This document shows positions 31,755 through 54,388 of a stretch of DNA of 64,000 bases, in pieces. Each line of letters begins with the position of its first letter. Position 1 is the first letter of the stretch. The stretch is taken from the NCBI GenBank assembly GCA_034505495.1, contig JAPDQV010000010.1:33108-97107 (forward strand), written 5' to 3'. The notes beneath the pieces were generated by a model. The model did no database searches. It saw only the letters and a list, made by a program, of their open reading frames with translations, and was not told the DNA's origin. The position numbers and the translations under genes are program-made. This DNA is from Candidatus Zhuqueibacterota bacterium. GTDB taxonomy: Bacteria > Zhuqueibacterota > Zhuqueibacteria > Residuimicrobiales > Krinioviventaceae.

Positions 31755-31773
31755 AAAGCTCCTCAATAAAAAC

Positions 31774-35540: not shown

Positions 35541-35555
35541 CGGCTCGTGATATAT

Positions 35556-35762: not shown

Positions 35763-35966
35763 GCCACAAAATTCATCGAGCTGTTCTCCGGCACTACATA
35801 ATACTCATTTTAGTTTCCCAGTGCCGGTCGCAAAAAGCCGCGGGGCGGGATTAAAACCCCGCCCCGCAAAACAATTTGAAAAATCATGCGGCAAAACCGC
35901 GGCGCAATTAAATTCAGCGCTTTTTTTGACCTTCGACTTTGGACTTTCGACCTTGGACCTTTGTCT

Positions 35967-37835: not shown

Positions 37836-38232
37836 GCGAGCTCCTATCGGATGGCTTAAAAAGTATGATAATGTTAGCAATTCTCATTGAAAAGGCAAAG
37901 TGTTTTTCAGGGAGAAAACAGATTGACAGCAGTCACCATGAGAGAAGATTTTTCAATGTAAAAATCAGGTTTAAATTGCAAATGTATCGTTTTAGCTATA
38001 GAAAACGGCATTCGATCCAAAGGAAAGTTGAAGTCTAATGCTCAATTTTTAAAAGAAAACGAGCCGATTGGCTGCGGGCTGCCCGCGAAAACCTTCGTAC
38101 AAGCCGTAAAGCGTTTCTGCTCGATTCCGCAGGAGGCGATTGCCGACTGTGCAAACGATGTCGTTCAATAGACTGCCCGTAGAACGGCTTTGCAGCAGGA
38201 CATCGAGTCAGGTAGTGATTTTGCGGTAAAAA

Positions 38233-38907
38233 TCAAGCGGCAAGCAGGCGGCCGCCGCTCAGGCGAAAACGACGCCGCATTCGCTCGGCCAATTCGAGCG
38301 AGTGGGTGACGACGATCAACGCAACTCCTTGATCGTGATTTAGTTCGAGAATCAGGTCCGCCAGCGAAGCGGCCGAAACGGCGTCGAGGGAGCCGGTGGG
38401 TTCATCGGCGAGCAAAACTCGGGGGCGATTGATCAGCGCGCGCACCACTGCCGCCCGCTGCAGCTCGCCGCCGGAAAGCTGGGCAGGGAAATGATTCTGC
38501 CGTTCAGCCAAACCGACGCGCTCCAAAAGCGTTCGGGCGCGGGATTCGACTTCCGAGTCCGCACCGAATGCCAGCACCGGAAGCAGCACGTTCTCAAGGA
38601 CCGTCAACTGCGGCAGCAGGTGGTGGAGCTGAAAGACAAAGCCGATCTCGCGGTTGCGGACGCGCGCCAGCTCGTCTTCGGAAAGAGCGGCTAAATTGCG
38701 GCCGTTTAATTCGATTCGGCCGGAGTCGGGACGATCGAGGCCGCCGATGAGGTTCAGCAGCGTGCTCTTGCCCGAGCCGGAAGGGCCGACGACGGCGACC
38801 GAGTCGCCGGCCTCCACCTCCCAGTCAAGATTCTGCAAAACTTGAATCGCCCCGCCGGCCGAGGGATAGGATTTACTGACGCCGACAAGCTGTAGAATTT
38901 TCTGCAT
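38233..38907 (-). CDS. ABC transporter ATP-binding protein (LolD/FtsE/MacB-like) with no adjacent permease
   Basis: Walker A GPSGSGKST, Q-loop, signature LSGGELQRAAVVRAL, Walker B LLADEPTGSLD. Start at the ATG at 38905-38907 (MQKILQLVGVSKSY). Confidence 0.8.
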   Translation of the reverse strand: MQKILQLVGVSKSYPSAGGAIQVLQNLDWEVEAGDSVAVVGPSGSGKSTLLNLIGGLDRPDSGRIELNGRNLAALSEDELARVRNREIGFVFQLHHLLPQLTVLENVLLPVLAFGADSEVESRARTLLERVGLAERQNHFPAQLSGGELQRAAVVRALINRPRVLLADEPTGSLDAVSAASLADLILELNHDQGVALIVVTHSLELAERMRRRFRLSGGRLLAA

Positions 38908-38954
38908 GGCTACGCTCTTTTCCGCCTTAAAAAGTTTATGCCTCAAAAGCGCCG

Positions 38955-40190
38955 TTACTCTTCTACGCGATAGAGAAAACTCCGGCTGCGCAGGATGAGC
39001 GAACGCCCTTTGACCGCCGGCGAAGCCCAAAAGCCGTCGCCGAGCTGATTGACGGCCAGCTTTTTAAACGTCCGTTCGGCGCTCACGACCGTGGTTTTGC
39101 CTTTTTTGTCGAAAAAGTAAACTCGACCCGCTGCCGCAATCGGCGAGGCGCCGAACTGTCCGCCTAATTGCTGCCGCCAGAGCACATTGCCGGTTTTGGC
39201 TTCCAGACAGCTTGCCGTACCCTTGTCGTCGGCCATGAAAATCATGTGGTTGAGAAAAATCGGCGAAGATTCAATCGGCACATGCTCTTCCGCTTTCCAC
39301 ACCACTTTGGCCGTCAGATCGCCGATGCCGTGCGGATCCACGGCCCACAGATCGGCCGACACCTCCTCCCAGCCGCAGTTAATAAAAACCAAACCGTCGC
39401 CAAAGATCGGCCGCGAAATCGTCGAGTCGCCGCCGTACACCACCCGCCAAATTTCCTTGCCGGTATAAGGATCGAACGCCTGGCACACTTTGGAGCCGTT
39501 GCTGATCAGCTGCGGTTTGCCGTTTACGGTAATGACGATGGGCGTAATATAGGCCTTGTAATAGAGCGGATTGCCCGTATAATATTCTTTCGGCCGATCG
39601 GTCTTCCACACTGTTTTGCCGGTCAGCTTGTCGACGGCGGCAATGACCTGCACATCGGAACCTTCCAAATGAAGGATGAGCAGGTTCTCGAACAAAAGAG
39701 GCGAAGAGGCAGGCCCTTGGATGTGATCGCAGGTCACTTCGTTCCACTTCCACAGAATTTTACCGCTTTTGGTGTCGATACAGGCAGTGCCGAAGGTGCC
39801 GAAATGCACATAGACGCGGCCTTCCTCAATGACCGGTGAAGGCGTGGCGTAGCTGTTGAGCGGATGCTTGCCCTGCGGTTTGTCACAGGTAAAAACTTGG
39901 ATTTGCCGTAAGATCCTGCCGCTGTTGAAATCGACGCAGAGGCCAAAGAACTGCTTGCCGTCTTCGGTTGCCGTGGTTAACCATATTTGATCGCCCCAAA
40001 TCACCGGCGTTGACCAGCCATGGTAAGGGATAGCGGTCTTCCATTTGACGTTCTGAGTTTCGCTCCAGGTCAGCGGCAGGGCCGCGTCCACGACGCCGTC
40101 GCAGGTCGGGCCGCGCCAATCCGGCCAGTTTTCGATCGCCCATCCAGACGCATACAATAAAATCAGCAGACCGTAGCCCCGTTTCATCAT
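38955..40190 (-). CDS. Secreted PQQ-like beta-propeller repeat protein (BamB-like fold), paralog 1
   Basis: Signal peptide MMKRGYGLLILLYASGWA, N-terminal NWPDWRGPTCDG motif, repeated (V/I)Y..(S/T).DG.L.A.D..TG...W blades. AAGGAGG RBS. Confidence 0.75.
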   Translation of the reverse strand: MMKRGYGLLILLYASGWAIENWPDWRGPTCDGVVDAALPLTWSETQNVKWKTAIPYHGWSTPVIWGDQIWLTTATEDGKQFFGLCVDFNSGRILRQIQVFTCDKPQGKHPLNSYATPSPVIEEGRVYVHFGTFGTACIDTKSGKILWKWNEVTCDHIQGPASSPLLFENLLILHLEGSDVQVIAAVDKLTGKTVWKTDRPKEYYTGNPLYYKAYITPIVITVNGKPQLISNGSKVCQAFDPYTGKEIWRVVYGGDSTISRPIFGDGLVFINCGWEEVSADLWAVDPHGIGDLTAKVVWKAEEHVPIESSPIFLNHMIFMADDKGTASCLEAKTGNVLWRQQLGGQFGASPIAAAGRVYFFDKKGKTTVVSAERTFKKLAVNQLGDGFWASPAVKGRSLILRSRSFLYRVEE

Positions 40191-40229
40191 CTACCTCCTT
40201 TTGAATGATACTCAGCCGGACCTCATCAC

Positions 40230-41519
40230 TTACGGCCGCAACCGTTGATAGACCTTTAGAATGCTCTCCGCCATTCTGTGCATCGAAAACTGTTCCATGG
40301 CCGCCTTTCGGCCCTGCTCGGCCATGGCGCGCAGCTGCGTCGGGTCATCCAGCAGCGACGCCCAGGCAGCGGCCAAATGCTCGCCGTCGTTCGGTTCGTA
40401 AATGAGTCCGCCGCCGGTCCTTTCAATGAATTCTGGATAACCGCCGACATTCGGCTGCACAATCGGCACGCCTGCCGCCAAGGCTTCGATCTGATAAGCG
40501 CCGAAGGCTTCGCCGTTGAGAACCGGAACGGAGAGCAGCGTCAAGGTTTTGAGAAAGCGGATGCGATTTTGCCGATCAAACCGTTCGACGATTTCGACAT
40601 CCTGCCGCCAACCCGCCTTCTCGGTGCGTTGCAGCATCTGTTTGACGAACGGCCGGTCATCACCGGTATAGCCGCCGGTAAGTTTGAGTCGTACCGATTT
40701 GAAGCGACTCTCCTGCTTGAGGCGCAAAAAGGCATCGACCACAACTCCGAGGCCGAAATATTCGTTCATGCGGCAGAGATAGCCGATGACCGGCGGATCG
40801 AGCGGCAGCGGCGAGGGCTCGTACTCCGACGCATCGATGCCGCCGTCGACGGCAAACGTCTTTTCCTTCGGCAGCTTTAAGAGCGGCTCGACCCGCTCGA
40901 GATAGTGTCGTCCGGTGGAAATAAAGGCATCGACGTCGACGGCGCGCTCGGCCATCAGCTGCCAGACTTTGTCGCGATATTCGGGCCGCATGGGGTCGAT
41001 CCACTCATGTTCGTCCTGCAGCGAGCAGACCACCGCGGCGCCCACGTCGCGTTTGAGCCTACGCGCCAGTCCCAGCAGCAGGGCATTGGACAAATGCACA
41101 ATGTCCGGCTGCACATGTTCTTTTAGGTACCGCACGAGGTGGTCGAGTTCCGACGCCTGTCTTCCCTCTTCGCCGCGCAGCATGGAAATCGTCATTTCTT
41201 CCAGACCGGCTGCGCGTGTGGCGCCGGCGCGTTTGGCGATCAGCTGCAGCAGCGCCGGCGAATCGAGCGCCCGTTCCACCCACAACGGTGCGCGGCGATA
41301 AATCGGCAGCTTTTCTTTCAGGTAGGTATTTACCGCGCCGAAAAAGACCGGCGTGTCGCCCATTAGGCCGTGGACGTCGACGTTGAGCGGCAAATACATC
41401 GGCACCATAATGACCTGCAGACCGAGCGAACGCAGCGCCGTAATCAGCTGATTGTCGCGCAGACAGTTCTGACAATAAAAAGTGCCTCCCGAGCCGGGGA
41501 CGATGTGGACGATTTTCAT
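40230..41519 (-). CDS. Glycosyltransferase family 4 (GT-B fold)
   Basis: GT4 C-terminal domain with the E-x7-E-like region (NGEAFGAYQIEALAAGVPIV), ~429 aa. Confidence 0.8.
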   Translation of the reverse strand: MKIVHIVPGSGGTFYCQNCLRDNQLITALRSLGLQVIMVPMYLPLNVDVHGLMGDTPVFFGAVNTYLKEKLPIYRRAPLWVERALDSPALLQLIAKRAGATRAAGLEEMTISMLRGEEGRQASELDHLVRYLKEHVQPDIVHLSNALLLGLARRLKRDVGAAVVCSLQDEHEWIDPMRPEYRDKVWQLMAERAVDVDAFISTGRHYLERVEPLLKLPKEKTFAVDGGIDASEYEPSPLPLDPPVIGYLCRMNEYFGLGVVVDAFLRLKQESRFKSVRLKLTGGYTGDDRPFVKQMLQRTEKAGWRQDVEIVERFDRQNRIRFLKTLTLLSVPVLNGEAFGAYQIEALAAGVPIVQPNVGGYPEFIERTGGGLIYEPNDGEHLAAAWASLLDDPTQLRAMAEQGRKAAMEQFSMHRMAESILKVYQRLRP

Positions 41520-42748
41520 CGCGTTTCTCCAAAGGCATAGAGTTTACCGTCGACTGCACCTATGAGAATCATGCCGCCGCAGACAGCCGGCGAGCCGATC
41601 AGCTCTGCGCCGACTTCGTAGCTCCAAAGCAGCGAGCCGGATTTCAGACTCAACAGGTACAGCCTGCCGTCTTTGGAAGCAGCGACCACTTTGTCGCCGC
41701 AGATGACCGGAGAGCCGTCGATGTCGCCGCGGGCGGTAAACGTCCACACGGCGCGGCCGGTCCGGCGATCAACAGCGTGCAGGCGCCGGTCGCGGCCGCC
41801 GATGACCACCAGTTCCTCGTTCACGGCGGGCGAGGAAAAAAAGGCGCCGGCCTTGCCTTCGGCGTCGTAATACCAGATTTCCTTTTTTTGCGTCAAATCG
41901 AAGGCAATCAGGCTGCCGTTGAATACGCCGATATAAGCAACGTGGTCCAAGACAGCCGGAGAACCGGCGACGAAAGCGCCGACTTTAACGCTTTCCGCAC
42001 GGCTGCCGTCGACTGCATTGAGCAGATGGAGCTGCGAGTCGCAGCCGCCGAAAACGACCAACTCCTCGTCGATCGCGGGAGCGCCGTTGATGTAATTGGC
42101 GGTCTCGTAGCTCCAGATCAAGCGGCCGTCGCGGCTGAAGCAGCGCATTAGGCCGTCGTAGCAGCCGACGACTATCCCCTCTCCTGCCGCGTTTGCCGAC
42201 CCATAGATCTCACCATCGACCTGTCTTTCCCAGAGCACCTCGCCGCTGCGTGCGTTCAACGCATAGAATTTTCCTCCCAAGGTTCCCAGATAGAGGGTGG
42301 AATCGACCAACAGCGCCGGCGCTTCGATATCGTCGCCGAGTCCGACCGCCCATCGCCGTGCGCCGTCCGCCGGATCGACGCAGTAGAGCGTGTCGTTCAG
42401 CGAGCCGACGTAAACGCAGCCGAGTCCCACAATAGGCGATGCCTTGATGTCGTCGCCGGCCGAAAACGTCCACAACAGCTTCAGCTTTGCCGACAATTCG
42501 CCCTCGGCCGTTCCCTGCAGGGCAGGATTGCCGCGAAAAATCGGCCAGGAAAGAGAAGCGTAATCCGTTTGGCTTGAACGTTCCGAATCCTGTCGTGCGC
42601 AAGCAAGGAGCAGGCAAACGACGAAAAGGACCGCGCCGATCTTTATCCGGCTGATAAATAGGCCGGTAACTTGCCGATCACCCAGGCGGCGTTTATGCAG
42701 GAATGCATCGGCGGCAGCGCGCAGATTTAAAGGGTTCGGCTTGTTCAC
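41516..42748 (-). CDS. Membrane-anchored PQQ-like beta-propeller repeat protein, paralog 2 (GTG start)
   Basis: N-terminal TM helix (IGAVLFVVCLLLAC), SWPIFRGNPALQG motif, eight-fold repeats of the ...DG.LY...G..YA.D..TG..LW pattern. GTGA overlap with the upstream gene's stop. Confidence 0.7.
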   Translation of the reverse strand: MNKPNPLNLRAAADAFLHKRRLGDRQVTGLFISRIKIGAVLFVVCLLLACARQDSERSSQTDYASLSWPIFRGNPALQGTAEGELSAKLKLLWTFSAGDDIKASPIVGLGCVYVGSLNDTLYCVDPADGARRWAVGLGDDIEAPALLVDSTLYLGTLGGKFYALNARSGEVLWERQVDGEIYGSANAAGEGIVVGCYDGLMRCFSRDGRLIWSYETANYINGAPAIDEELVVFGGCDSQLHLLNAVDGSRAESVKVGAFVAGSPAVLDHVAYIGVFNGSLIAFDLTQKKEIWYYDAEGKAGAFFSSPAVNEELVVIGGRDRRLHAVDRRTGRAVWTFTARGDIDGSPVICGDKVVAASKDGRLYLLSLKSGSLLWSYEVGAELIGSPAVCGGMILIGAVDGKLYAFGETR

Positions 42749-44346
42749 GGTTCAGCCTCTTCGTGATTTTTAAGCGATATGGCGCCGGTTGGACAGGCTT
42801 CGGCGCATTGCCGAGCTGTCTTTTCCAACCCGCGCTCGAGCGATTCGTGAAACGGCACGGCAAGGCGCACCTGAAAGCCGCGTCCGACAAACGCCAATCC
42901 CAGCCGTTCCTGCGCCGCTTCGGCAATCTGAATGCAGATGCCGCATTTGATGCATTTGCCTGGTTCAAAAACCACCAGATCGTGGCGGTCTTCCACTTCC
43001 ACCCGTAATCGCTGACCCAACCGATAGCGCTTTGGGTCGGCGCCGTACTCGTGGGCATAAAGGCGCAGGCGACAGGAATTCGGCTTGCGGCAGTCGCAGT
43101 GCAGGCAGCGCTGCGCTTCGGCTACGGCTTCCTCCTCCGTAAAGCCGCCGGCCGGATCTTGGGGAGAGATTCGGTCAACCGGCGAAGCAGCTTTAGCCAT
43201 GCGTTCGACCTCTTCGGGCCGCAGGCGTCCGACGATCGAATTGAATCGGCTCGGCCTGCCGCTAATCGGCAGTCCTTTGAGATACTGATCGATCGAGTGA
43301 GCGAGGGTCTTTCCGTGGGCGACGGCGCGTACGGCCATGCGGCTTTCGGCAATCAAATTGCCGCCGGCAAAAACGCCTGCAAGCATAGTCTGCAGCGTCG
43401 TGCGGTCGACCTGAACGCCTTTGTCGCCGACTTGCAGCACGCCGCGGTAAAGCTCTGCGCCGGCGCCGGTTGTCAGAGCGACGGCGTCGTATTGATCGCG
43501 CAGCTGCCCGAGGCTGACGTCTTTGCCCAGCTCGACGCCAAAGTGTGTGCGGATGCCTAGTGCGAGGATGGTTGCGATTTCAGCATCCAGCACCTCGCGC
43601 GGCAGACGCTCGACAGGCACCGCCGAACGGAGGTTGCCGCCGGCTGCCGATTCCTTTTCATAAAGATCCACTGCATGTCCGAAGCGGCGCAAATAATAAG
43701 CGGCGGCGAGTCCGGCCGGACCGGCGCCCACGACGGCGACCCGCTTGCCGGTATCCGGCAGACACTCGGGCTGAAACGGCGTATCTGCGGCCAAATCGAG
43801 GTCGGCAACGATCTGTTTGAGCAGGCAGATCGAGACGGCGCCGTCTTTGAGTCGGCGCGTGCAGGCGTTTTCGCAGGGCGCCGGACAGATGCGGCCCAGC
43901 ACGGCCGGTAAGGCAATCTCCGCCTTGACCGTCGCGATTGCCGCCCGCCAATCGCGGTTCTGAATCTGACGAGTCATTAGCGGGATGTTCATTTGCGCCG
44001 GACAGGAGCGCTGACACGGAGCAGTGCAGTCGCCGACGTGTTCGCTGAGCAGCAGCTCGAGCGCCGAGCGCCGAAAGTCCCGCACCCGCTCGTTTTCAGT
44101 TTCAATGACCATGCCGTTCTCGGCCGGCGCCGAGCAGGACGGCATGAGTCTTCCCGAGGTTTTTTCTTCAACCATGCAGACCATGCAGGAGGTGTTGGGC
44201 GGAAAGCCTTCCAAGCGGCAGAGCGCGGGAATGAAAAAGCCCGCCGCCTCTGCGGCTGAAAAGAGGGTCGTGCCGCGCGGTACGTTCACCTCTCGGCCGT
44301 TGATGGTCAATCGCACGGCGGCTCCCTCCTCGACCTTGCGCTTCAT
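42745..44346 (-). CDS. Fe-S flavoprotein: N-terminal 2Fe-2S ferredoxin fused to a GltD/NfnB-like NAD(P)H:FAD oxidoreductase core with C-terminal 2x[4Fe-4S] ferredoxin
   Basis: LTINGREVNVPRGTTL...CRLEG..C..C (plant-type/NuoG-like 2Fe-2S). CTAPCQRSCP and CPAPCENAC (GltD N-terminal 4Fe-4S). VAVVGAGPAGLAAAYYL (FAD/NAD Rossmann). C-terminal CLHCDC...C and CIKCGICIQ...CAEACP clusters. Start at the ATG at 44344-44346, directly after the upstream stop. Confidence 0.8.
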   Translation of the reverse strand: MKRKVEEGAAVRLTINGREVNVPRGTTLFSAAEAAGFFIPALCRLEGFPPNTSCMVCMVEEKTSGRLMPSCSAPAENGMVIETENERVRDFRRSALELLLSEHVGDCTAPCQRSCPAQMNIPLMTRQIQNRDWRAAIATVKAEIALPAVLGRICPAPCENACTRRLKDGAVSICLLKQIVADLDLAADTPFQPECLPDTGKRVAVVGAGPAGLAAAYYLRRFGHAVDLYEKESAAGGNLRSAVPVERLPREVLDAEIATILALGIRTHFGVELGKDVSLGQLRDQYDAVALTTGAGAELYRGVLQVGDKGVQVDRTTLQTMLAGVFAGGNLIAESRMAVRAVAHGKTLAHSIDQYLKGLPISGRPSRFNSIVGRLRPEEVERMAKAASPVDRISPQDPAGGFTEEEAVAEAQRCLHCDCRKPNSCRLRLYAHEYGADPKRYRLGQRLRVEVEDRHDLVVFEPGKCIKCGICIQIAEAAQERLGLAFVGRGFQVRLAVPFHESLERGLEKTARQCAEACPTGAISLKNHEEAEP

Positions 44347-46736
44347 GCCGACCCTCCTTGTCTGGAAACAACCTTGACCGCCTCGATCGGGCAGACCTGC
44401 CTGCAGGCATCGCACTGGGTGCATTTATCCTGCAGAATTTCGTGCCGCTGATAAGGCGTAATCGGGATCGCCTGCACCGGACACTTTTGCGCGCAAAGCG
44501 TGCAGCCGATACAGGCGTCGGTGATTTCATAACGGATCAGCGGCCGACATTTGCCGGCGGGACAAACGCCGTGCAGATGAGCTTCATATTCATCATAAAA
44601 ATAGCGCAGCGTCGTTAATACCGGATTGGGTGCGGTTCTCCCCAAGCCGCACAGGCTGCCTTCGCGGGTTTTTTCGGCGAGCTCGCGCAGTTTTTCCAAA
44701 TCTTCTTTCTGCCCCCTGCCCTCGCACAGTTTTTCGAGAATCTCGAGCATATGCTGCGTGCCGATGCGGCAAAAAGTGCACTTGCCGCACGAATGGTCGC
44801 GGGTAAAGGTGAGAAAATAGCGGGCGATGTCGACCATACAATCGCCGTCATCCATGACCAGCAGGCCGCCCGAGCCCATCATGGCGCCGACGCGGGTGAG
44901 CGCTTCGTAATCGACCGGCGTTTCGGCAAGCTCCGCCGGCACGCAGCCGCCGGAGGGTCCGCCGACCTGCACCGCCTTGAAGCGCCTGCCGCCCGCTACG
45001 CCGCCGCCGATCTCTTCGACGATTTGACGCAGCGTCATTCCCATCGGCACTTCGATCAGACCGCCGCGCTTGACTTTACCGGCCAAGGCGAAAACTTTGG
45101 TTCCCTTGCTCTTTTCGGTCCCCAGCGCGGCAAATTTTTCCGCGCCGTGACGCAGAATCCACGGCACGGTTGCAAAGGTCTCGCAATTGTTGACCAGCGT
45201 CGGTTGACCCCACAACCCTTTCTGCGCCGGATAAGGCGGCCGATAGCGCGGCATGCCGCGGCGGCCTTCCAAAGAAGCAATCAGCGCCGTCTCTTCGCCG
45301 CAGACGAAGGCGCCTGCACCCTCTTTCACGCGCAAGCGCAGAGAAAAACCGCTTCCGAAAATATCATCGCCTAAAATCCCTTCTTCTTCGCAGCGACGCA
45401 GAGCGGCGTTGACTCGTTCCACGGCCAGCGGGTATTCGGCGCGGATGTAGAATATTCCCTCATGCGCACCGACGGCAAAGGCGGCGATGACCATGCCTTC
45501 GATGACGCGATAGGGATAGGATTCAAGAATCATGCGGTCCATAAAGGCGCCGGGATCGCCTTCGTCGCCGTTGCAGATGACGAATTTTTTATCGCTTTGC
45601 TGAGCCGCCACGAGGCGCCATTTCTCGCCGGTGGGGAATCCTGCGCCGCCGCGGCCGCGCAGACCGGAGGCCGCCACTTCGGCGATGATCTCTTGCGGCT
45701 GTTTATGCAGGAGGCATTCTCGCGCGGCAGCAAAACCGCCAGTGGTACAATAGTCCTCCAAATCCAACGGATCGAGCGAACCGGCGCGGTCGGTGACAAT
45801 GTGAACCTGGCGGTCGAGAAAGGCGGTAACCTGCGGATCGCGCACGTGCAGCGGATGGCGGGTAAAGCCGCCGTCGGATGACGGAGCAAACCATTCCTCG
45901 ATCCATTGCAGCGCGCGGCCTTTCAAGCGGGCGAACGGCGAAGCGGGCGGGAAATGCCGTAAAACGATTCCCTCGACTTGTTCGGGCGTGACGCGGTCAT
46001 AGACCACCGGTGTCTGATTCGGCTTGACAACCTCGACCAGCGGCACGCGATGGCACATGCCGACGCAGCCGACGCGTTTGATGCGCGCCGGGGCTTCCAA
46101 AGACTGAACGACCTGCAGCAGCTGTTCATGGACCTGCGCGCTGCCGCTCGATTGACAACAGGAACCCAAGCCGACGCGGATTTCGCCCGCCGCCTGAGCG
46201 GTAAAAGTCTGATCTGAACTCTGCTTGCCCGATGTTTTTCTTCGCGTCAAAAAATCGTGCAGCATGTTGCCGACCGACGCAGGCTCGACATGGCCGTAAG
46301 TAACGCGGTCGATCTGCACCACCGGCGCCAGGGTGCAGCAGCCCAGGCAAGCGACTTTTTCGACCGTAAAGAGACGGTCGCCGTCCGTGTCTTCTCCCTC
46401 TTTGAGGCGCAGCTCGCGCCTCACAGCGTCGTGAACCAAATCGGCGCCCTTGACGTGGCAGGCGGTGCCGTGACAAATATGAATGATATGCTGACCGGCC
46501 ACCGCATGCCTGAACTGGGTGTAGAACGTGGATACGCCGGCGACGGCGGCCGGGGTAATGCGCGTCAGCTCGCAGAGTCGCCTTAAAAGCGGCTCCGGCA
46601 GATAGTGAAAAGTGGTCTGGATGTCCTGCAGAATGGGGATCACGGCGTCCGGGCCGTCGCCGTGTGCGGCGATCAGCCGCTGAACGTGCTCATCCCATTC
46701 TGTGGTGGACTGCACTATGTCATTCACGATCGTCAT
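44343..46736 (-). CDS. NuoE-NuoF fusion (24-kDa 2Fe-2S thioredoxin-like + 51-kDa FMN/NAD(H)-binding subunit) with C-terminal 2x[4Fe-4S] ferredoxin; HydB/HoxF/StnC-like
   Basis: NuoE block CHGTACHVKGA...CLGCCTLAPV. NuoF blocks GRGGAGFPTGEKW, CGEETALIASLEG, SCGKCTFCRIG. Terminal CIGCTLCAQKCP...CTQCDACRQVCP. 797 aa. Confidence 0.85.
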   Translation of the reverse strand: MTIVNDIVQSTTEWDEHVQRLIAAHGDGPDAVIPILQDIQTTFHYLPEPLLRRLCELTRITPAAVAGVSTFYTQFRHAVAGQHIIHICHGTACHVKGADLVHDAVRRELRLKEGEDTDGDRLFTVEKVACLGCCTLAPVVQIDRVTYGHVEPASVGNMLHDFLTRRKTSGKQSSDQTFTAQAAGEIRVGLGSCCQSSGSAQVHEQLLQVVQSLEAPARIKRVGCVGMCHRVPLVEVVKPNQTPVVYDRVTPEQVEGIVLRHFPPASPFARLKGRALQWIEEWFAPSSDGGFTRHPLHVRDPQVTAFLDRQVHIVTDRAGSLDPLDLEDYCTTGGFAAARECLLHKQPQEIIAEVAASGLRGRGGAGFPTGEKWRLVAAQQSDKKFVICNGDEGDPGAFMDRMILESYPYRVIEGMVIAAFAVGAHEGIFYIRAEYPLAVERVNAALRRCEEEGILGDDIFGSGFSLRLRVKEGAGAFVCGEETALIASLEGRRGMPRYRPPYPAQKGLWGQPTLVNNCETFATVPWILRHGAEKFAALGTEKSKGTKVFALAGKVKRGGLIEVPMGMTLRQIVEEIGGGVAGGRRFKAVQVGGPSGGCVPAELAETPVDYEALTRVGAMMGSGGLLVMDDGDCMVDIARYFLTFTRDHSCGKCTFCRIGTQHMLEILEKLCEGRGQKEDLEKLRELAEKTREGSLCGLGRTAPNPVLTTLRYFYDEYEAHLHGVCPAGKCRPLIRYEITDACIGCTLCAQKCPVQAIPITPYQRHEILQDKCTQCDACRQVCPIEAVKVVSRQGGSA

Positions 46737-48437
46737 TTATCGGCCGATGCAGTAGAGATTTTCCGTTCCGCGAATATAGATGCGATTTTTGACGAATGCG
46801 GGGATTGTCAGCACCTCTTCGCCCAGCGGATTATCGGCTTCGAGCGTAAAGGTTTCGGACATACGAAAGATATGGGTGATGCCCTTTAGGTCTGTCAAGT
46901 AGACGCGGTCTCCGACCAGGATCGGCGAGGAATAAAAGCCGCGGTCGAAATCGTGCGACCATACCTTTTCGCCGGTATCGGCGCGCAGGCAGGTAACCGT
47001 TCCATAGCTTGCGGCCATGATGACGAAACGCTCGTCGGCGACCGGGCTGGAGACCTCGGAGAGGTCGTCGCCGTATTCCCAAATCTGTCGTGCACCGTCC
47101 GCACCGATTTCTATTGCCGCCAGTCGGGCATATTCATTGACGACGAACACGCGGCCTGCCGCAAAAGCCGGCGACGGCGCCACTTCACCGTCCATGCATT
47201 TGACCCGCCAAAGCTCCTTGCCGGTCGCCGGATCGTAAGAAATAACGAACGGGTTGGAAGAAAGTACGACTTCATCGCGATCCGCGCCGAGAATAAGAAG
47301 CGGCGAGGTCCAGGAAATCTGTACATCGTCGCGCTTGGTCTGGTAAACCAATTTGCCGTCGGTCAGGCGAAAGGCGCGCAGACTGCGCGAGCCGCGATGG
47401 TCGTACTGAACGAGCAAAAGGTCGCGATAGATGATCAGCGAAGAAGCATGGCCATAGTGATTGTCCGGTAATCCCAAATTTTTCGCCCAGATTCTCTTGC
47501 CGGAAAAATCATAACAGGCCAGATCGCCGGTGGCGAAAATCGCGCAGACGACCCGGCCGTCGGTTGCCACGGTCGGCGCGGCATAGCCGGTATCGTCCGA
47601 GACTTTGGGCAGTTCTTTGGGATGCCCGGGCACGTCGTTGATCTCGGCGCGCCATAATAGGTCGCCGGTCGCGGCATTCCAGCAATAGAGTTCCTGCGAC
47701 GATTCATCGGCGCCGGTAAAAAAGATTCTGTCTTCCCAAACCACCGGCGAGCAGTTGCCGAATTTCGGCACCGCGGTTTTCCACAAAATTCCTTCTCCTG
47801 AGGCGCCGTTCCACTTGACGGGAACAGAATCAGGGTCGACATAAGCGCGGCCGGCGCCTTCGGGTCCGCGAAAACCAGGCCAGTTGCGTCGCAGTTCTTC
47901 GAGAGAGACGGCCGGAGCTGCAGAAGAAACGGATGCAGGCTTTTTCGGTGCAAACTCTTGTTCAGCGAGAATGCCTGCCGTCAGCGCACCGACAAATAGA
48001 ACCAGCGCGCTCCAAGCCAAAGCGCGGCTTCCGGCCAGTCGAGTTTGCCATGAAATCTGCTGCGGTTGTCCTGCCAGGTCGGGAAGCGCCGGCACGCGCG
48101 ACCGAAGGTATTTCAAGGAAAGCAGGAAAACGATCATGCCGACAAAAAGCATGCGTCCGCCGAGACGGAGCTGTTCGCGTCGGGTAAAGAACGCTTTGCG
48201 TGCCAAAAGATCGAGCGCGCGAATCTGCTCCTTGAGCGCTTCATTATCGGGATCATCCTGCAGCTGCGCCATGAGCTGCTGCAGCGCCGGGCTGCGCAGA
48301 GGTGTGTTCCAACGCAACTGCAGATAATTGGCCGTCAGCAGGAGCGCCAGCACGGCGATAAAGATGCCGCTGATGATCAGCAGGCGCTCTGCCAAGGGTT
48401 TGAGAAAAGCTTCGTTCTGCAGATCTTTCCAGTTCAT
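46737..48437 (-). CDS. Membrane-anchored PQQ-like beta-propeller repeat protein with N-terminal two-TM/coiled region, paralog 3
   Basis: Two N-terminal TM helices flank a ~90-aa helical region. NWPGFRGPEGAG motif followed by PQQ-like blades (ELYCWNAATGDLLW, YDPATGKELW, RADTGEKVW). Confidence 0.7.
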   Translation of the reverse strand: MNWKDLQNEAFLKPLAERLLIISGIFIAVLALLLTANYLQLRWNTPLRSPALQQLMAQLQDDPDNEALKEQIRALDLLARKAFFTRREQLRLGGRMLFVGMIVFLLSLKYLRSRVPALPDLAGQPQQISWQTRLAGSRALAWSALVLFVGALTAGILAEQEFAPKKPASVSSAAPAVSLEELRRNWPGFRGPEGAGRAYVDPDSVPVKWNGASGEGILWKTAVPKFGNCSPVVWEDRIFFTGADESSQELYCWNAATGDLLWRAEINDVPGHPKELPKVSDDTGYAAPTVATDGRVVCAIFATGDLACYDFSGKRIWAKNLGLPDNHYGHASSLIIYRDLLLVQYDHRGSRSLRAFRLTDGKLVYQTKRDDVQISWTSPLLILGADRDEVVLSSNPFVISYDPATGKELWRVKCMDGEVAPSPAFAAGRVFVVNEYARLAAIEIGADGARQIWEYGDDLSEVSSPVADERFVIMAASYGTVTCLRADTGEKVWSHDFDRGFYSSPILVGDRVYLTDLKGITHIFRMSETFTLEADNPLGEEVLTIPAFVKNRIYIRGTENLYCIGR

Positions 48438-49744
48438 ACGCTTTTGCCTGCATTAGAGTCGTTGCCGAGGGATTCGATCGGGAAAAGGGTGTTGCCGTCT
48501 TTATCGACCGGGCAATAACTGAAACAGCGGCCGCAGCTGAGGCATTCGCCGCGATCGATTTCGTACTCACGACGAAAAGAAGGCGCAACCAAGCCGATCA
48601 GCTTGAGGCTCAACACCAGGCCGAGAAACCCGCCGAGCAGCATGCCGCCGCGTCGGAAGCGGTTCCGGATCATCGCGGCATCGGCAAAAAGCTCATCCGG
48701 TGTTTCTCCGGAAGAGCGAAAAGCGCGCACCGCCGGTGTGGCCGCTCCGCCCTTTTCTTCCGCCAGAACGTCTGCCGCCAGGGCGACGCGGGGATGCAGG
48801 CGCGCCAACGGCGCATCGAATTGGGAAAAGGCAAAGGCGCCGGCCAAGATTAAAAGCGGCGTCAGCAGGAGAAACCGCAGGATGAGGCGGCCGGACGCGG
48901 CTGCGGCCGTCGGCTGCAGGGACGGCTTTTCGATGGCGTCGAACGGACAGGAAGCTTCGCACAGCCGGCAGTTGATGCAGCGGCTTGGGGTGATGCGCAC
49001 ATGTCTTTTCGACAACCTCGACATCCAATTCAAGAGCACGCCGTAAGGGCAGAGAAAACGGCAATAAGGCCGCGCCACCACCGTTCCCAAGAGCAGCAGA
49101 GAAAAGCCGAGCGCGATCATGCGAAAACTGCTGCTGAAGCGGAAAAAGCCGACAAAGGGATCATAACGGCAAATAAGGAAACCGGCACCGACCGCCGCAG
49201 CAAGAACGGCCAAACCGAGATACAGATACGGCAGCAGGCTCAGAACGGCGCGCACCGGCAGCGGCACCGAAATCGGTTTAATAATCACGGCATCCTGTAT
49301 TGCACCCAAGGGGCAGACGGAAGCGCAAAAAGTCCGGCCGAAAAAGAGCGTCGTCAGCAGCGGCAGGGCAAAAAAGAGGATCACCGTTAAAGGGATTGCA
49401 TAGGCTGGTGAAAACAACGCCAGAGTAACGTTCTGCAGCGAACCGACCGGACAGACGCAGCCCTTGCGCCAAAAGCCGAAATAAACCAAAGAAAAGATCA
49501 TCAGCATAAAGAGTGCGCGGCGCGAGCGCAGACGGTGGGCGAAAACGACGGATGCCGTCAGTGCCGCAGCCAGAACGAACACATCCAGGTACTCCAAAGC
49601 CAAAGCCCGCGGCACCGGCGTCTGCAGTTCAGGCCGCTGATAGCCGGATTGGAAATCGGGCTTGGGAAAACGCTGCTGCACTTCCGCCAAAAGGGGCTGC
49701 GCAACGATAAAAAAGATGAGCCAAGGCAAGGCGTGACGTTTCAT
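48434..49744 (-). CDS. NapH/MauN-like integral-membrane polyferredoxin
   Basis: Signal/TM N-terminus. Two membrane CxxxCP motifs (GCVCPVG, CASVCPLG). C-terminal cytoplasmic 2x[4Fe-4S] (CINCRLCEASCP, CLSCGRCFSYCP). Confidence 0.75.
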   Translation of the reverse strand: MKRHALPWLIFFIVAQPLLAEVQQRFPKPDFQSGYQRPELQTPVPRALALEYLDVFVLAAALTASVVFAHRLRSRRALFMLMIFSLVYFGFWRKGCVCPVGSLQNVTLALFSPAYAIPLTVILFFALPLLTTLFFGRTFCASVCPLGAIQDAVIIKPISVPLPVRAVLSLLPYLYLGLAVLAAAVGAGFLICRYDPFVGFFRFSSSFRMIALGFSLLLLGTVVARPYCRFLCPYGVLLNWMSRLSKRHVRITPSRCINCRLCEASCPFDAIEKPSLQPTAAAASGRLILRFLLLTPLLILAGAFAFSQFDAPLARLHPRVALAADVLAEEKGGAATPAVRAFRSSGETPDELFADAAMIRNRFRRGGMLLGGFLGLVLSLKLIGLVAPSFRREYEIDRGECLSCGRCFSYCPVDKDGNTLFPIESLGNDSNAGKSV

Positions 49745-49821
49745 TGGACTTGTCTCAATATCGAGTTGACTTTGCCGTATGCAATCGCTGCAATTTACTC
49801 GGATGATTCATCGCCGCACGG

Positions 49822-50409
49822 TCAGGCTTTCTTTTCGGGAAGCTTTTTAGCGTACCTTAGGCCTTCCTCGCCGCGCAGAATGTACGGCGTGGAAGCGGGC
49901 ACGCGGCGAAACGCCTGTGCGGGACAGGCGCGGGCAATGGCGCACTCGTTGCAGTTGAGGCAGCGGTCGTGACGCACCTGCAGATAGAGCGAGCCGTTGC
50001 CGAACGATCCGCATCCCTTGACGCACTTGCCGCAGCCGATGCACAGCTTTTCATCGATGGTGTATTCGAAATAAGGGTCTTCCACAAAGGTGCGCTTGAT
50101 GGCGCCGGTGGGACACAATTGGCTCTCGGCGCCGGTATCGCGCGAATGCGCGCCCGGCTCCAAATAGCCGCTGCACAAGTCGCAGTAGCCGCACATCGAG
50201 TAGGAATGCACCGCCTTGACGGCCGACTCGGTCAGCACGCAGTTGATCGAGCACTTTTCGCACTGAGTGCACTTTTCCGGATCAATCTGCCACACCAGAT
50301 CATCACGTTGCGAGCGAGAAAGCGCAGCGCCTGCTGCTCCGACTACCGACAACCCGGCGGCAGTCTGCAGCACCGAGCGGATGAATTGACGTCGAGTGTG
50401 TTTTTCCAT
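49822..50409 (-). CDS. Tat-exported NapG/MauM-like ferredoxin with four [4Fe-4S]-type Cys clusters
   Basis: Twin-arginine signal MEKHTRRQFIRSVLQTAAGLSVVGAAGAA. Cys clusters CTQCEKCSINC, CGYCDLCSG, CIGCGKCVKGC, CLNCNECAIARACP. Confidence 0.75.
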   Translation of the reverse strand: MEKHTRRQFIRSVLQTAAGLSVVGAAGAALSRSQRDDLVWQIDPEKCTQCEKCSINCVLTESAVKAVHSYSMCGYCDLCSGYLEPGAHSRDTGAESQLCPTGAIKRTFVEDPYFEYTIDEKLCIGCGKCVKGCGSFGNGSLYLQVRHDRCLNCNECAIARACPAQAFRRVPASTPYILRGEEGLRYAKKLPEKKA

Positions 50410-50412
50410 TCC

Positions 50413-50634
50413 TTACCTCCCTGTCGGCGAAGCGACTGTTTCCTTCACCGCTTCAAGATCAAACCGATATTTGCAAGCCGCATATTGCGCACAGCTTGAG
50501 CACGATTCATGCTGGGAACAAGTCCGGCCATGCCAAAGGATTTTTCCCCGCATCATTCCTGCCGTGCCGACGGCCGCGGCGGCGGCAAGAACGAGCCATC
50601 TGGCGGCATCGAAGAAAAATTCTCGCCTGTTCAT
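50413..50634 (-). CDS. Small (~73 aa) Tat-signal Cys-rich protein
   Basis: ATG at 50632-50634, immediately after the stop of the upstream NHL gene (TAAGATG). MNRREFFFDAARWLVLAAAAAVGTAG Tat-like signal, then CSQHESCSSCAQYAACKY (four Cys plus His). Only visible as an internal segment of the 240-aa track ORF. Confidence 0.4.
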   Translation of the reverse strand: MNRREFFFDAARWLVLAAAAAVGTAGMMRGKILWHGRTCSQHESCSSCAQYAACKYRFDLEAVKETVASPTGR

Positions 50635-50635
50635 C

Positions 50636-51622
50636 TTAATGATCCTTTTTTTCAAATCGTCTGACCTGTTTCCGCAACGGATCCAAGGCATAGATCCGGC
50701 CTTCCGCATCGACCGCCAAATCGATGCCGACCACGGCCTCATCGAACTTTTCCGGTCCCGCGACCAGAGCGAGGAACTCACCGTGCAGGCCATGAATTTT
50801 GATGCGCGGCAATCCCTTTTCCGAGGTGACGAACGATCCGTCCGGCAATAGGGCGATGTGCGAAGGATTACAGCAGCCGCTGAATCCGTCGAGCGCAAAC
50901 GAAGACCGGCTCCACGCCGTGCGCATGCGACCGTCCGGCGTATAGTTTTCGAACTGATGCTTGCCGGGATTGACGACCCACAGCGATCCGTCTTGGTCGA
51001 GGACAAGGTCGAAATAAAAACTGGGGATGATGAATCCCTGCGAGTCATCAGAGGTCGAGCGCCGATCGATTTTGCCCAACAGGTTTCCTTGGCGATCGAA
51101 CCGCCAGACGACCTTTTGCCCGGCATCGGCAACAAAGACCTGATCTTTACCTACGGCAATCGAGGTCAGCACCGCATCGACGCCCAAATCCTGCCATTGC
51201 GCCCGCACGACACCGACAGCATCGCGAATCTGGATCGATTCGCCGTGCCCCAGATAGAGATTTCCCTGCTCATCGAAAGCCAGGCAGCTGACCGGCCTAT
51301 CCGTGGGCCATTGGGCAAGCCGGCGGCCTTCCGTCGTCAATACGAGCACCATCCGATCGCCGGAAACCGCCAATCGGTTGTCGAAAAGGGCGATCGCAAA
51401 CGGCTGCTGCAGCGGCAGGACAATCGGCTCCAGCTCATTGTAAAGTGTCTGGTGAGCCTCGCTCCGGCGGTAGCGATCGAGCCGATATTCGAAAGGATTG
51501 TCCGACCGTTGCCGAGCATCATCGCGCACGGCAGTCAGGCCGAAATAGACGGCACCGGCTACTCCTACGGCAATCACGGCATAGGTGAAAAAGCGATCGC
51601 GTTTTGTTTTTGGAGCGCTCAT
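50636..51622 (-). CDS. Membrane-anchored NHL-repeat / six-bladed beta-propeller protein
   Basis: N-terminal TM (FFTYAVIAVGVAGAVYFGL). Repeated ~40-aa blades containing DxxGNLY/DxDGSLWV/DAEGRIYALD patterns, characteristic of NHL repeats. Confidence 0.55.
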   Translation of the reverse strand: MSAPKTKRDRFFTYAVIAVGVAGAVYFGLTAVRDDARQRSDNPFEYRLDRYRRSEAHQTLYNELEPIVLPLQQPFAIALFDNRLAVSGDRMVLVLTTEGRRLAQWPTDRPVSCLAFDEQGNLYLGHGESIQIRDAVGVVRAQWQDLGVDAVLTSIAVGKDQVFVADAGQKVVWRFDRQGNLLGKIDRRSTSDDSQGFIIPSFYFDLVLDQDGSLWVVNPGKHQFENYTPDGRMRTAWSRSSFALDGFSGCCNPSHIALLPDGSFVTSEKGLPRIKIHGLHGEFLALVAGPEKFDEAVVGIDLAVDAEGRIYALDPLRKQVRRFEKKDH

Positions 51623-51628
51623 TATCTT

Positions 51629-53050
51629 TTACTCTCGCAAATCCAAACAGATCAAACGACGCGAATCGCGGCAGAGGAGCCTGCCGTCAACCAGGGCCAT
51701 AGGGCCCCATGCATCGCTGCCGTTCAACACTTTTGCCCGCGCCAAAGGCTGAAATCCGGCCGTCGTCGCACGCGCCAGAGTCAATTCGCCCTCGTCGCTG
51801 AGGATCAAAAATTTGCCGTCGGCTATAAGGTAAGGGCCGAGACCGAAACGCCATTCTCCCTCGCTGCTCCACACGATTTTTTCCGGAGCGCTCGCATGGG
51901 CGCATACAAACCGATTGCGCCTGGTGCCGGCATCTTTCGGCAAAATCGAGAACAGACAGCCTTGAAAAAAAATCGGCGTTTGCTGTTCGGAACAGAGCCC
52001 CTGATCGGGTTTATAGGCCTGCAGCAGTTCAGCGGAAAATTCCTCGCCGTTGCGGCGGATCTGGAAAACGGCGGCGCCGTTGCCGTAACCGGCGGTAAAA
52101 AAGATGCGGCCGTCACCCAGATGAATCGGCGACGGAGCAATCACGTTCGGCGCCCAAGCAGCGGACGAAAAGAGCAATCGGCCGCGATCCTCCCTTTCGG
52201 CGGAAACGCCGACGACTCCGCCGATCGCGGCATAAACGTACATCCTTTTGCCGTGAATAGTCATGGGCATTACGGACGAATGAGACATTTTCCAACCGTT
52301 GGGATTGGGCGTCTGCCAAAGGATTTCGCCGCTGCGCAGGTCGACGCCGACCAAAAGGGCGCTGCCGCCGGTGCCCAGGATCACCTGACCGTCGTCGATC
52401 AGCGGGCACTGACCGGTATACCAGAGCGGCACTTCGGCCTTGAATTCGGAAGCAATGTCGAGTCCCCAGCGGAATTCGCCGCTGAACCGGTTGACGCACA
52501 TCACCTGACATTGCGGCCCGATGGTGACGACAAAGCTGTCGGCAATTGCGGGAACCGTGCGCGACATGCCGTGATTGCGTTTGGTGTAAATGTCGTAGCC
52601 GCGTTGCCACAGCTCGGTGCCGTCGGCAAAAGAGAAACAGCGCAGCAGATCACGCCGCTTTTCTTCATCATAATCCAGCACATAGACGCGGCCGTCCGCC
52701 ACCGCGGGTCCGGCGTGCCCTTCTCCCAAATCCACAGACCAAAGTACCTTGGGACCTCCCTCCGGCCAGCGTTCGGCCAACCGATAAGAGTCTCGGCTAA
52801 TGTTGTCGAATCGCTCGCCGCGAAAGCGCGGCCATGCGCCGGAAGCAGGCGGAACGATCGGATTCAGCAGTTGAAAAAAAGAACCAATGCGCACGCCGGC
52901 AGCCGCCTGCAGCTCCGCCGGTCGGCCGTCCATGCCCGGACGAAATTCTGTGAAATGAGCGGCCGGATCATAAAGCAACCAATAAGCCAAAGCAATGACG
53001 GAAGCCAGACTGAAGAAAAACGTGAGGAAATTTTGGATTCTTTTGCTCAT
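51629..53050 (-). CDS. Membrane-anchored PQQ-like beta-propeller repeat protein, paralog 4
   Basis: Start at the ATG at 53048-53050 (MSKRIQNFLTFFFSLASVIALAYWLL TM anchor). AWPRFRGERFDN motif; blades with DGTELW, RSGEILW, DGRLLC. Confidence 0.7.
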   Translation of the reverse strand: MSKRIQNFLTFFFSLASVIALAYWLLYDPAAHFTEFRPGMDGRPAELQAAAGVRIGSFFQLLNPIVPPASGAWPRFRGERFDNISRDSYRLAERWPEGGPKVLWSVDLGEGHAGPAVADGRVYVLDYDEEKRRDLLRCFSFADGTELWQRGYDIYTKRNHGMSRTVPAIADSFVVTIGPQCQVMCVNRFSGEFRWGLDIASEFKAEVPLWYTGQCPLIDDGQVILGTGGSALLVGVDLRSGEILWQTPNPNGWKMSHSSVMPMTIHGKRMYVYAAIGGVVGVSAEREDRGRLLFSSAAWAPNVIAPSPIHLGDGRIFFTAGYGNGAAVFQIRRNGEEFSAELLQAYKPDQGLCSEQQTPIFFQGCLFSILPKDAGTRRNRFVCAHASAPEKIVWSSEGEWRFGLGPYLIADGKFLILSDEGELTLARATTAGFQPLARAKVLNGSDAWGPMALVDGRLLCRDSRRLICLDLRE

Positions 53051-54375: not shown

Positions 54376-54388
54376 ATTTTCTCCAAGG

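Follow-up and report, generated by a model that had tools for sequence, protein, structure and literature searches.

What two coupled iron-sulfur (FeS) flavoproteins, with the look of an electron-bifurcating enzyme and no catalytic partner, are doing among genes for membrane and periplasmic proteins is the question raised by a 64,000-nt stretch of contig JAPDQV010000010.1 from a Candidatus Zhuqueibacterota bacterium (the whole stretch is hereafter the window). The two proteins, P1 and P2, lie at 42745-46736, and inspection of the open reading frames (ORFs) confirmed both genes there, on the minus strand. An earlier note on this DNA had described them as a NuoE-NuoF fusion and a [2Fe-2S]-GltD-like fusion of Stn/Nfn type, set among pyrroloquinoline quinone (PQQ)-like propellers and a NapGH-like module, and had offered two views of them, a stand-alone transhydrogenase in an unrelated operon or a supplier of reducing equivalents to the membrane module. 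Pfam searches bear out both proteins as described, with E-values well outside chance, and Pfam and NCBIfam identify the neighbours as PQQ_2-type propellers and a NapG/NapH-like pair. Our preferred reading, to which we assign a probability of about 0.6, is that P1 and P2 form a cytoplasmic Bfu-type FeS flavoprotein that has lost its NADP(H) site and serves as the NADH-/ferredoxin-linked head of a membrane complex encoded by the operon.

Bfu enzymes are central to anaerobic energy metabolism. The family is defined by a BfuBC core with flavin mononucleotide (FMN) and the sites B1-B5 and C1; B2 is ligated by Cys, Cys/Thr, His, Cys and Cys, is missing in non-bifurcating homologues (PMC9304861) and was assigned as Zn in later structures (PMC11829005). 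P1 matched the Pfam families 2Fe-2S_thioredx (1e-45), Complex1_51K (6e-45), SLBB and NADH_4Fe-4S (1e-31) and ends in a 4Fe-4S dicluster. Both proteins were placed by bit-score ranking against solved structures (all PDB sequences), where the top matches of P1 were 9n5u_B of the T. sibiricus Nfn-Bfu enzyme (727 bits), 9bov_B of C. saccharolyticus NfnABC (707) and 8oh5_B of S. ovata StnABC (680); NiFe- and FeFe-Bfu hydrogenases scored 651-556 bits and complex I NuoF ~365. The NCBIfam models for NuoF (TIGR01959, 472 versus a cut-off of 559) and NuoE (126 versus 141) were matched below cut-off. Residue alignment pairs all five B2 ligands of P1 with those of 7t2r_B (Table 1), and the ligands of B1, B3/B4, B5 and C1 were also matched in alignments to NiFe-Bfu and Nfn structures. 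Among 62 P1 orthologues from related loci the cofactor ligands are conserved in 56-62, the B5 cysteines apart, where C193 is replaced by Ser in seven and C228 in nine (about 11-15%). The ligands of C1 and B1 and all eight cysteines of B3/B4, the end that interacts with ferredoxin in Bfu enzymes, are kept in 62/62. As far as its sequence tells, P1 is a Bfu-type BfuBC core with every defining feature, namely the FMN/NADH site, B1, B2, B3, B4, B5 and C1.

P2 is a trimmed version of the A subunit of the same enzymes. Pfam returned Fer2_4 (2e-16), Fer4_20 (7e-20), a Rossmann domain of the flavin adenine dinucleotide (FAD) type (NAD_binding_8, 8e-11) and a single C-terminal 4Fe-4S domain, and the top PDB matches were Csac NfnA (9bov_A, 1e-101), StnC (8oh5_C, 1e-97) and T. 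sibiricus NfnA (9n5u_A, 1e-93), with far weaker matches to NfnB/NfnL, GltD and DPD. The alignment to Csac NfnA (1178 residues) falls into two blocks, P2 residues 11-297 on 4-289 and 310-523 on 452-671; therefore ~160 middle residues and the whole C-terminal Fdh/NuoG-like half are missing from P2. Alignment to T. maritima NfnB ends at residue 251, at the start of the missing segment, a stop that fits the predicted NADPH-binding domain boundary of that protein. The same gap appears in structure. An AlphaFold2 model of P2 calculated with 114 homologues (predicted local distance difference test score, pLDDT, 90.9; predicted template modelling score, pTM, 0.89) superposed in Foldseek onto the structures of StnC, Csac NfnA and T. 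sibiricus NfnA (query TM-scores 0.84-0.85), and these superpositions span 682-716 columns for 533 residues, leaving ~150-180 gap columns. Full-length relatives of P2 (~660-720 residues) carry an insert of 125-130 residues at exactly this point with a GGGNxAxDxAR motif, in canonical dinucleotide form (GGGNEALDAAR) in one of them (P0193). The best NCBIfam match, NF009454 (PRK12814, 'putative NADPH-dependent glutamate synthase small subunit', 657 residues), shares the 2Fe-2S, GltD-like and C-terminal FeS parts and the absence of an Fdh-like domain, and full-length relatives of this type occur in the same cluster; the shortfall of P2 (424 against its cut-off of 916) comes from the missing central NAD(P)H subdomain.

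What is left of the subunit is its wiring. In Csac NfnA the productive path runs FAD-A7-A6-A3-A2-A1-[B1-FMN-C1]-B3-B4, with A4/A5 left as a remnant that leads nowhere, and the ligands of A7 are C108, C147, C151 and K170 (PMC11829005). The equivalent residues of P2 are C115, C154, C158 and K177; across 114 sequences the three cysteines are invariant and the lysine is at least 90% conserved, as holds, one or the other, for the GxGxxG FAD motif and all cluster ligands. The alignments leave P2 without the NAD(P)H-binding subdomain, A4, A5 and the Fdh/NuoG-like domain, and its single CxxCxxC...CP cluster pattern is that of T. sibiricus NfnA, which keeps A3 and is without A4. By its sequence P2 is therefore an intact mid-potential wire, A1-A2-A3-A6-A7, with a predicted FAD-binding subdomain, pruned of its dispensable branch and of the NAD(P)H subdomain. 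By the features tested, P1 and P2 belong to the Bfu family, with bifurcation itself a prediction, and they derive from an Nfn-Bfu/Stn-type transhydrogenase. The Stn/Nfn kinship claimed in the earlier note thus holds for both subunits, and its GltD assignment in part: the GltD/NfnL-type A6/A7 region and the FAD motif are present, and a complete GltD/NfnB is not, the NAD(P)H-binding subdomain being absent. This deletion, the loss of the Fdh-like half and the true start of P2 had escaped that note. A third flavin-binding site, which it had also raised, was not found by Pfam scan beyond the P1 FMN site and the P2 FAD motif. The pair should not be classed as a transhydrogenase, because two features that define the Nfn-Bfu/Stn type, the NADP(H) site and the Fdh-like domain, fail on alignment.

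The truncation is shared widely. The best 120 of >6400 P2 matches are 390-574 residues long, all but three 512-574, at 48-92% identity, and a candidate division KSB1 bacterium has the closest (92%) among the matches listed. Below 1e-30, 2066 representatives were retrieved from a library clustered at 50% identity; of the best 150, >100 have the short architecture and ~12 are full-length. With one genome scanned for each species, at least 574 species genomes from ~10 phyla proved to carry the truncated family: KSB1, Latescibacterota, Aminicenantes/Acidobacteriota, Calditrichota, Poribacteria, Lentisphaerae/Victivallales, Kiritimatiellae, many Planctomycetota, Bacteroidota (Prolixibacteraceae), Armatimonadota and Spirochaetota. 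The best 80 of these carriers are all metagenome-assembled or single-amplified genomes. Such a distribution argues that the truncation is a family trait and no artefact, and as its sequence stands the P2 of the window cannot be an NADPH-linked enzyme. In a minority of clusters the P2 homologue keeps the NAD(P)H subdomain (L084; P0193, P0217, P0239, P0211); L084, for instance, has the propeller with transmembrane (TM) segments (TM-propeller), an 801-residue NuoEF, a 675-residue P2 homologue (4288-6315) and the GT4 gene. The NADPH site was therefore lost within the history of the cluster and is still present in some lineages. Rare P2-like fusions were also seen (P0124, 1133 residues; P0137, 951 residues), one with an extra Pyr_redox_2 flavoprotein and Fer4, one with a URO-D-like domain.

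The genes around P1 and P2 are as conserved as the truncation. Among 82 loci found via P2, 49 have at least 7.6 kb of upstream sequence, and 46 of the 49 show the order NHL-propeller, NapG-like, NapH-like, TM-propeller, P1, P2 on one strand; these loci span KSB1, Latescibacterota, Aminicenantes, Planctomycetota, Kiritimatiellae, Lentisphaerae, Bacteroidota and others. The reciprocal test, on metagenome contigs recovered via the NapH-like subfamily, found the NapG-like gene upstream in 63/63, the TM-propeller gene downstream in 46/46, always between the NapH-like gene and P1, P1 in 37/41 and P2 in 30/35. Two long contigs, one KSB1-like and one from Latescibacterota, share a 14-gene layout that includes a 1069-1098-residue double-FtsX permease, and FCB-type phyla, Lentisphaerae and Kiritimatiellae also keep the lipoprotein propeller, GT4 and ATP-binding cassette (ABC) genes downstream. 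In two exceptions (L163, ~13284-15407; L122, 4201-5807) the cluster ends right after the TM-propeller gene and P1/P2 are missing from the locus, with an IS200 transposase near the break in L163 and an AbiEi/AbiEii toxin-antitoxin pair near that in L122; neither of the two has a replacement electron-input module for P1/P2. No hydrogenase, formate dehydrogenase (FDH) or nuo genes were found within ~20 kb either side of P1/P2 in the window, and no hydrogenase or FDH catalytic gene occupies a conserved position in 160 related loci, in agreement with the earlier note, which had seen no HydA or FdhA. Within the window the intergenic gaps from the first propeller gene to the ABC ATPase gene are -4, 13, 77, 6, 1, 3, 77, -4, 0, -4, -4, -4, 39 and 44 nt. 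The NapH-like gene overlaps the TM-propeller gene by 4 nt and the latter abuts P1 (0 nt); from this run of -4, 0, -4, -4 and -4 nt, the NapH-like, TM-propeller, P1, P2, lipoprotein propeller and GT4 genes are translationally coupled. Together, gene order and co-occurrence point to an obligate genetic link of P1/P2 to a membrane FeS protein and an exported ferredoxin.

The membrane and periplasmic components resemble known electron conduits at a distance. The NapH-like protein matches Fer4_5 (PF12801, 3e-14); its three CX3CP-type motifs are conserved, as are its two complete [4Fe-4S] motifs. The NapG-like protein has a conserved twin-arginine motif for twin-arginine translocation (TAT) and 16 conserved cysteines. 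Both are remote from the true Nap proteins: the NapH-like protein scores 39.5 bits with the NapH model TIGR02163 (cut-off 213), the score with NF007012 is 21.8 (cut-off 269), and a solved-structure search with the two proteins returned ferredoxin motifs only. According to PMC8238504, NapH-like proteins are electron conduits across the membrane that are put to modular use with extracytosolic reductases and oxidases, PQQ alcohol dehydrogenases among them. A small four-cysteine ORF (65-90 residues) lies between the NHL and NapG-like genes and is conserved in ~25 loci from several phyla; its 73-residue product in the window had no match in a family library search and, to judge from its motifs, could be a very small membrane-anchored subunit that binds FeS or a metal. 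The NHL protein carries a GCCNP motif (vicinal C250 and C251) that is invariant in 107 homologues, and its AlphaFold2 model (pLDDT 87) retrieved only generic NHL domains (TRIM, Brat) and no catalytic analogue in a structure search. All seven PQQ_2-type propellers (38955-56862) have a signal peptide, lipobox or TM anchor. Unlike PQQ-dependent dehydrogenases, they fail the quinoprotein dehydrogenase model TIGR03075 (26-67 bits, cut-off 480), and generic PQQ_2/BamB-like repeats are their best matches. No cluster protein contains a CxxCH haem motif.

We postulate the following route. NADH would be oxidized at the FMN of P1, and electrons from reduced ferredoxin, which probably has a role by analogy with other Bfu enzymes, may join via B3/B4 in the confurcating direction. 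The electrons would then travel along the P2 wire, A1-A2-A3-A6-A7(-FAD), and, instead of reducing NADP+, would be handed to the [4Fe-4S] clusters on the cytoplasmic side of the NapH-like protein, cross the membrane to the TAT-exported 4x[4Fe-4S] ferredoxin and end on the periplasmic propeller/NHL proteins or their substrate. In sum, low- to mid-potential electrons taken from NADH/ferredoxin would be exported into the periplasm. Outward flow is the favoured direction, since every plausible periplasmic donor is too positive for the reduction of NAD+ or ferredoxin. Candidate exits from the cytoplasmic head are the exposed FAD/A7 face and the A2/A3 end (the former Fdh-like site) in P2, and B3/B4 in P1. 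In the truncated form the FAD/A7 face, now uncovered, makes an appealing exit, but because the minority clusters keep the NAD(P)H subdomain, docking at the A2/A3 end or at B3/B4 is equally possible.

Several points weigh against this reading. First, since some variants keep the NAD(P)H subdomain, an exposed FAD face cannot be what ties every member to the membrane, and in these full-length forms an NADPH-linked transhydrogenase activity may survive. Second, the FAD subdomain of P2 keeps the GxGxxG motif, the acidic residue and the GG motif in a confident fold, but the canonical GD reads GGN/S; this deviation is no argument for FAD loss, because full-length relatives deviate too, and FAD binding by the truncated domain is a prediction from sequence and model. 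Third, the contact of P1/P2 with the NapH-like protein is one that we infer, and both the direction of electron flow and the part of ferredoxin are argued entirely from thermodynamics and homology. Fourth, NCBIfam and Pfam searches with the periplasmic and downstream proteins returned only generic BamB/PQQ_2, NHL, GT4 and LolD-type families, in every case well under the cut-offs of specific models. Lastly, two orphan P2 homologues (L045, L061) stand in unrelated contexts that give no clue.

Other readings were weighed against the membrane-linked head. It is unlikely that P1 and P2 act as a soluble Bfu enzyme with a small third substrate (a quinone, a low-molecular-weight thiol/disulfide or O2/peroxide) at an exposed P2 FAD, the synteny then reflecting a shared pathway. 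Removal of the NADPH subdomain should indeed expose the isoalloxazine face, the A6/A7/FAD limb is strongly conserved, the rare P2 fusions join it to other catalytic domains (Pyr_redox_2 with Fer4; URO-D-like), and swapping of the third substrate is known in Bfu enzymes (PMC9304861). However, no candidate cytoplasmic catalytic partner is conserved, and direct docking is favoured both by the 0-4-nt coupling to membrane subunits and by the cytoplasmic FeS clusters of the NapH-like protein, for which there is no other obvious donor.

Of the same low order of probability is an NADH(/ferredoxin):menaquinone oxidoreductase whose NapH-like subunit reduces quinone, in effect NapH reversed, with the periplasmic ferredoxin and propellers as a separate branch or as assembly factors. 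The distance of the NapH-like protein from true NapH speaks against it, as does the strict co-conservation of the TAT ferredoxin and the TM-propeller, by which the periplasmic side looks integral; on the other side, NapH is the putative quinone-interacting subunit of NapGH (PMC8238504), and a quinone is already the predicted third substrate of other Bfu clades (Nuo-Bfu).

Operation in reverse, in which a low-potential periplasmic donor is oxidized and P1 bifurcates the electrons to NADH and reduced ferredoxin, is very improbable. Bfu enzymes are reversible, and NapH-like systems work with extracytosolic oxidases too (PQQ alcohol dehydrogenase, for example), but the propellers score far below the PQQ-dehydrogenase cut-off, no hydrogenase, FDH or haem protein was found with the cluster, and quinoprotein-type donors are, by established redox potentials, far too positive to reduce NAD+ or ferredoxin.

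A stand-alone Stn/Nfn electron-bifurcating transhydrogenase (NADH + ferredoxin <-> NADPH), in the operon by chance, is hardly credible. For it are the identity of the nearest solved relatives of both subunits (StnABC/NfnABC) and the canonical NAD(P)H motif that a minority of the cluster variants retain; nevertheless, the window P2 and >100 representative homologues are without any of the NAD(P)H-binding subdomain, and the gene neighbourhood is translationally coupled and conserved across phyla. This first view of the earlier note is not supported at this locus, and the evidence favours its second, a supply of reducing equivalents to the membrane module, in which physical coupling and direction are the inferred parts. 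Lastly, an ordinary respiratory complex I NuoEF module can be dismissed. In its favour the NCBIfam NuoF and NuoE models do match P1, if only below cut-off; against it, no nuo membrane genes lie nearby, the additional B2-B5 sites of P1 are missing from complex I and P1 is about twice as similar to Bfu B subunits, so that PDB ranking, NCBIfam cut-offs and residue alignments together refute this identity.

Comparison with known systems places the cluster between two families. With Nfn-Bfu/StnABC (8OH5, 9BOV, 9N5U), P1 shares the FMN/NADH site, B1-B5 and C1, and P2 shares A1, A2, A3, the NfnL/GltD-type A6/A7 including the Lys ligand and, putatively, the FAD-binding subdomain; A4 is missing from T. 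sibiricus NfnA as well. In contrast to those enzymes, the NAD(P)H subdomain, the Fdh/NuoG-like domain and A5 are absent here, BfuC is fused to BfuB, and a soluble three-gene operon is replaced by a 15-gene operon with membrane and periplasmic proteins. Membrane-bound Mbh-Bfu and Nuo-Bfu enzymes have been predicted by Schut et al. 2022, who left 17-18 of 57 BfuB clades unassigned (PMC9304861). The likeness to these lies in a BfuBC core that feeds or drains a membrane module via a trimmed BfuA with no catalytic domain of its own, whereas the partner here is a NapH/NapG-like FeS pair with beta-propellers and no Mbh/Nuo-type ion-pumping module, a set that is not among the Bfu types of PMC9304861. 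The membrane half resembles NapGH, NosGH, NosR and PceC in pairing a TAT-exported poly-ferredoxin with a polytopic Fer4_5 protein that has CX3CP motifs and two [4Fe-4S] clusters. It differs in having no Nap, Nos or Rdh catalytic subunit, no FMN-bind/ApbE, and only a remote relation to NapH/NapG; no nap genes (NapAB/NapC) are present, and the presumed donor is the cytoplasmic NADH-linked Bfu module rather than quinol.

Full-text literature searches for this gene combination found no description of the cluster. We suggest tentatively, at somewhat less than even odds, that it represents an undescribed class, a membrane Bfu complex whose bifurcating/confurcating NADH-ferredoxin core has no NADPH site and feeds a haem-free NapH-like/TAT-ferredoxin conduit that exports low-potential electrons to reductive chemistry at propeller/NHL proteins, in at least 570 species genomes (FCB, PVC, Acidobacteriota and others). 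The periplasmic half could make the whole system a new kind. A transhydrogenase-derived Bfu module with its NADPH site cleanly excised would here have a transmembrane FeS conduit and periplasmic propellers as its sole conserved partners and, if the reading is true, would offer cytochrome-free bacteria a new route for sending NADH/ferredoxin electrons outside the cytoplasm. Carriers include many uncultivated polysaccharide-degrading lineages (KSB1, Latescibacterota, Aminicenantes, Planctomycetota, Kiritimatiellae, Lentisphaerae), and the same reading would be a first clue to what the abundant 'PQQ-like/BamB-like' propeller paralogues do in these phyla. The natural variants with and without the NAD(P)H subdomain are a built-in experiment on third-substrate exchange in Bfu enzymes.

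The cluster occupies ~38233-56862 of the window, tightly packed and on the minus strand throughout (Table 1). For P2 a longer ORF call gives 559 residues from 44424 and runs 82 nt into P1; the true start is almost certainly M27, giving 533 residues, because of the ATGA overlap with the P1 stop, an AGGAGG upstream and the matching N-termini of homologues.

Table 1. Genes of the cluster, domains and cofactor sites of P1 and P2, in positions of the window
Feature	Position	Strand	Description	Basis
P1	44343..46736	-	797 residues, BfuC (NuoE/HydC-like) fused to BfuB (HydB/NuoF-like)	Pfam, PDB ranking, alignments, orthologue ligands
P1, cluster C1	46254..46682	-	NuoE-like thioredoxin-fold [2Fe-2S]; C88, C93, C130, C134	PF01257 1e-45, residues 19-161
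P1, B5 site	45927..46184	-	BfuB N-terminal [2Fe-2S]; C193, C194, C224, C228	Aligned to 9n5u_B and 7t2r_B N-termini
P1, NuoF core	44577..45779	-	FMN/NADH site (GRGGAGFPTG, EGAGAFVCGEETAL), SLBB, B1, B2	
P1, B1 ligands			[4Fe-4S]; C650, C653, C656, C696	
P1, B2 ligands			C633, C671, H720, C725, C730 (7t2r_B: C438, C476, H525, C531, C536)	Residue alignment
P1, B3 and B4	44373..44525	-	C-terminal 2x[4Fe-4S] ferredoxin-like domain	Fer4_21/Fer4_7
P2	42745..44346	-	533 residues, truncated BfuA of Nfn-Bfu/Stn type (A1, A6, A7, FAD subdomain, A2, A3)	
P2, A1	44092..44322	-	N-terminal [2Fe-2S]; C43, C54, C57, C71	Fer2_4; invariant in 114 sequences
P2, A6 and A7	43792..44049	-	GltD/NfnL-type two-[4Fe-4S] region	Fer4_20, alignment
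P2, FAD subdomain	43273..43749	-	Putative FAD-binding Rossmann subdomain, GAGPAG ... GVFAGGN	NAD_binding_8 and only the N-terminal part of Pyr_redox_2; pLDDT >90
P2, junction	43417..43458	-	Point of the absent NAD(P)H-binding subdomain, residues ~297-310	
P2, A2 and A3	42772..43119	-	C-terminal A2 (C414, C417, C419, C425) and single ferredoxin-type A3 (C465, C468, C471, C518)	A3 invariant, A2 at least 90% conserved (114 sequences)
TM-propeller	46737..48437	-	566 residues, three N-terminal TM segments and PQQ_2 beta-propeller	Pfam, synteny
NapH-like protein	48434..49744	-	436 residues, NapH/MauN/NosR-superfamily polytopic FeS protein; Fer4_5, CX3CP motifs, two [4Fe-4S]	
NapG-like ferredoxin	49822..50409	-	Periplasmic; TAT signal (RRQF), 16 conserved Cys = 4x[4Fe-4S]	
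Small four-Cys protein	50413..50634	-	73 residues (MNRREFFF...), RR motif, TM helix, C-x5-C-x2-C-x5-C	
NHL propeller	50636..51622	-	Six-bladed, TM-anchored, invariant GCCNP	
Four exported propellers	51629-53050, 53167-54375, 54389-55597, 55594-56862	-	PQQ_2/BamB-like paralogues	
Lipoprotein propeller	41516-42748	-	Downstream conserved gene	
GT4 glycosyltransferase	40230-41519	-	Downstream conserved gene	
Further propeller	38955-40190	-	Downstream conserved gene	
ABC ATPase	38233-38907	-	LolD/MacB-like; downstream conserved gene	

Some observations concern the surroundings of the cluster. The ABC ATPase gene (38233-38907) has no FtsX permease partner anywhere in the window, a GH44 gene coming next; in related loci the double-FtsX permease gene of 1069-1098 residues directly follows the ATPase gene, and on a Phycisphaerales chromosome the FtsX gene is upstream of the cluster instead. 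The same Phycisphaerales chromosome has an FMN_red gene (NADPH-dependent FMN reductase; L076, 11579-12349, minus strand), antisense directly after the P2 homologue. In Latescibacterota and KSB1-like loci a 216-residue signal-peptide protein with no family match (L002, 496-1146, plus strand) lies between two propeller genes and has no counterpart in the window. The flanks of the cluster encode TAT-signal GFO/IDH/MocA oxidoreductases (56997-58445, minus strand; 33945-35540, plus strand), housekeeping genes and, at 29334-37880, GH44, GH97 and BNR/sortilin-like proteins with C-termini of the FlgD_ig/type IX secretion system (T9SS) type, a content that fits a polysaccharide-degrading organism of the FCB group (KSB1-like).

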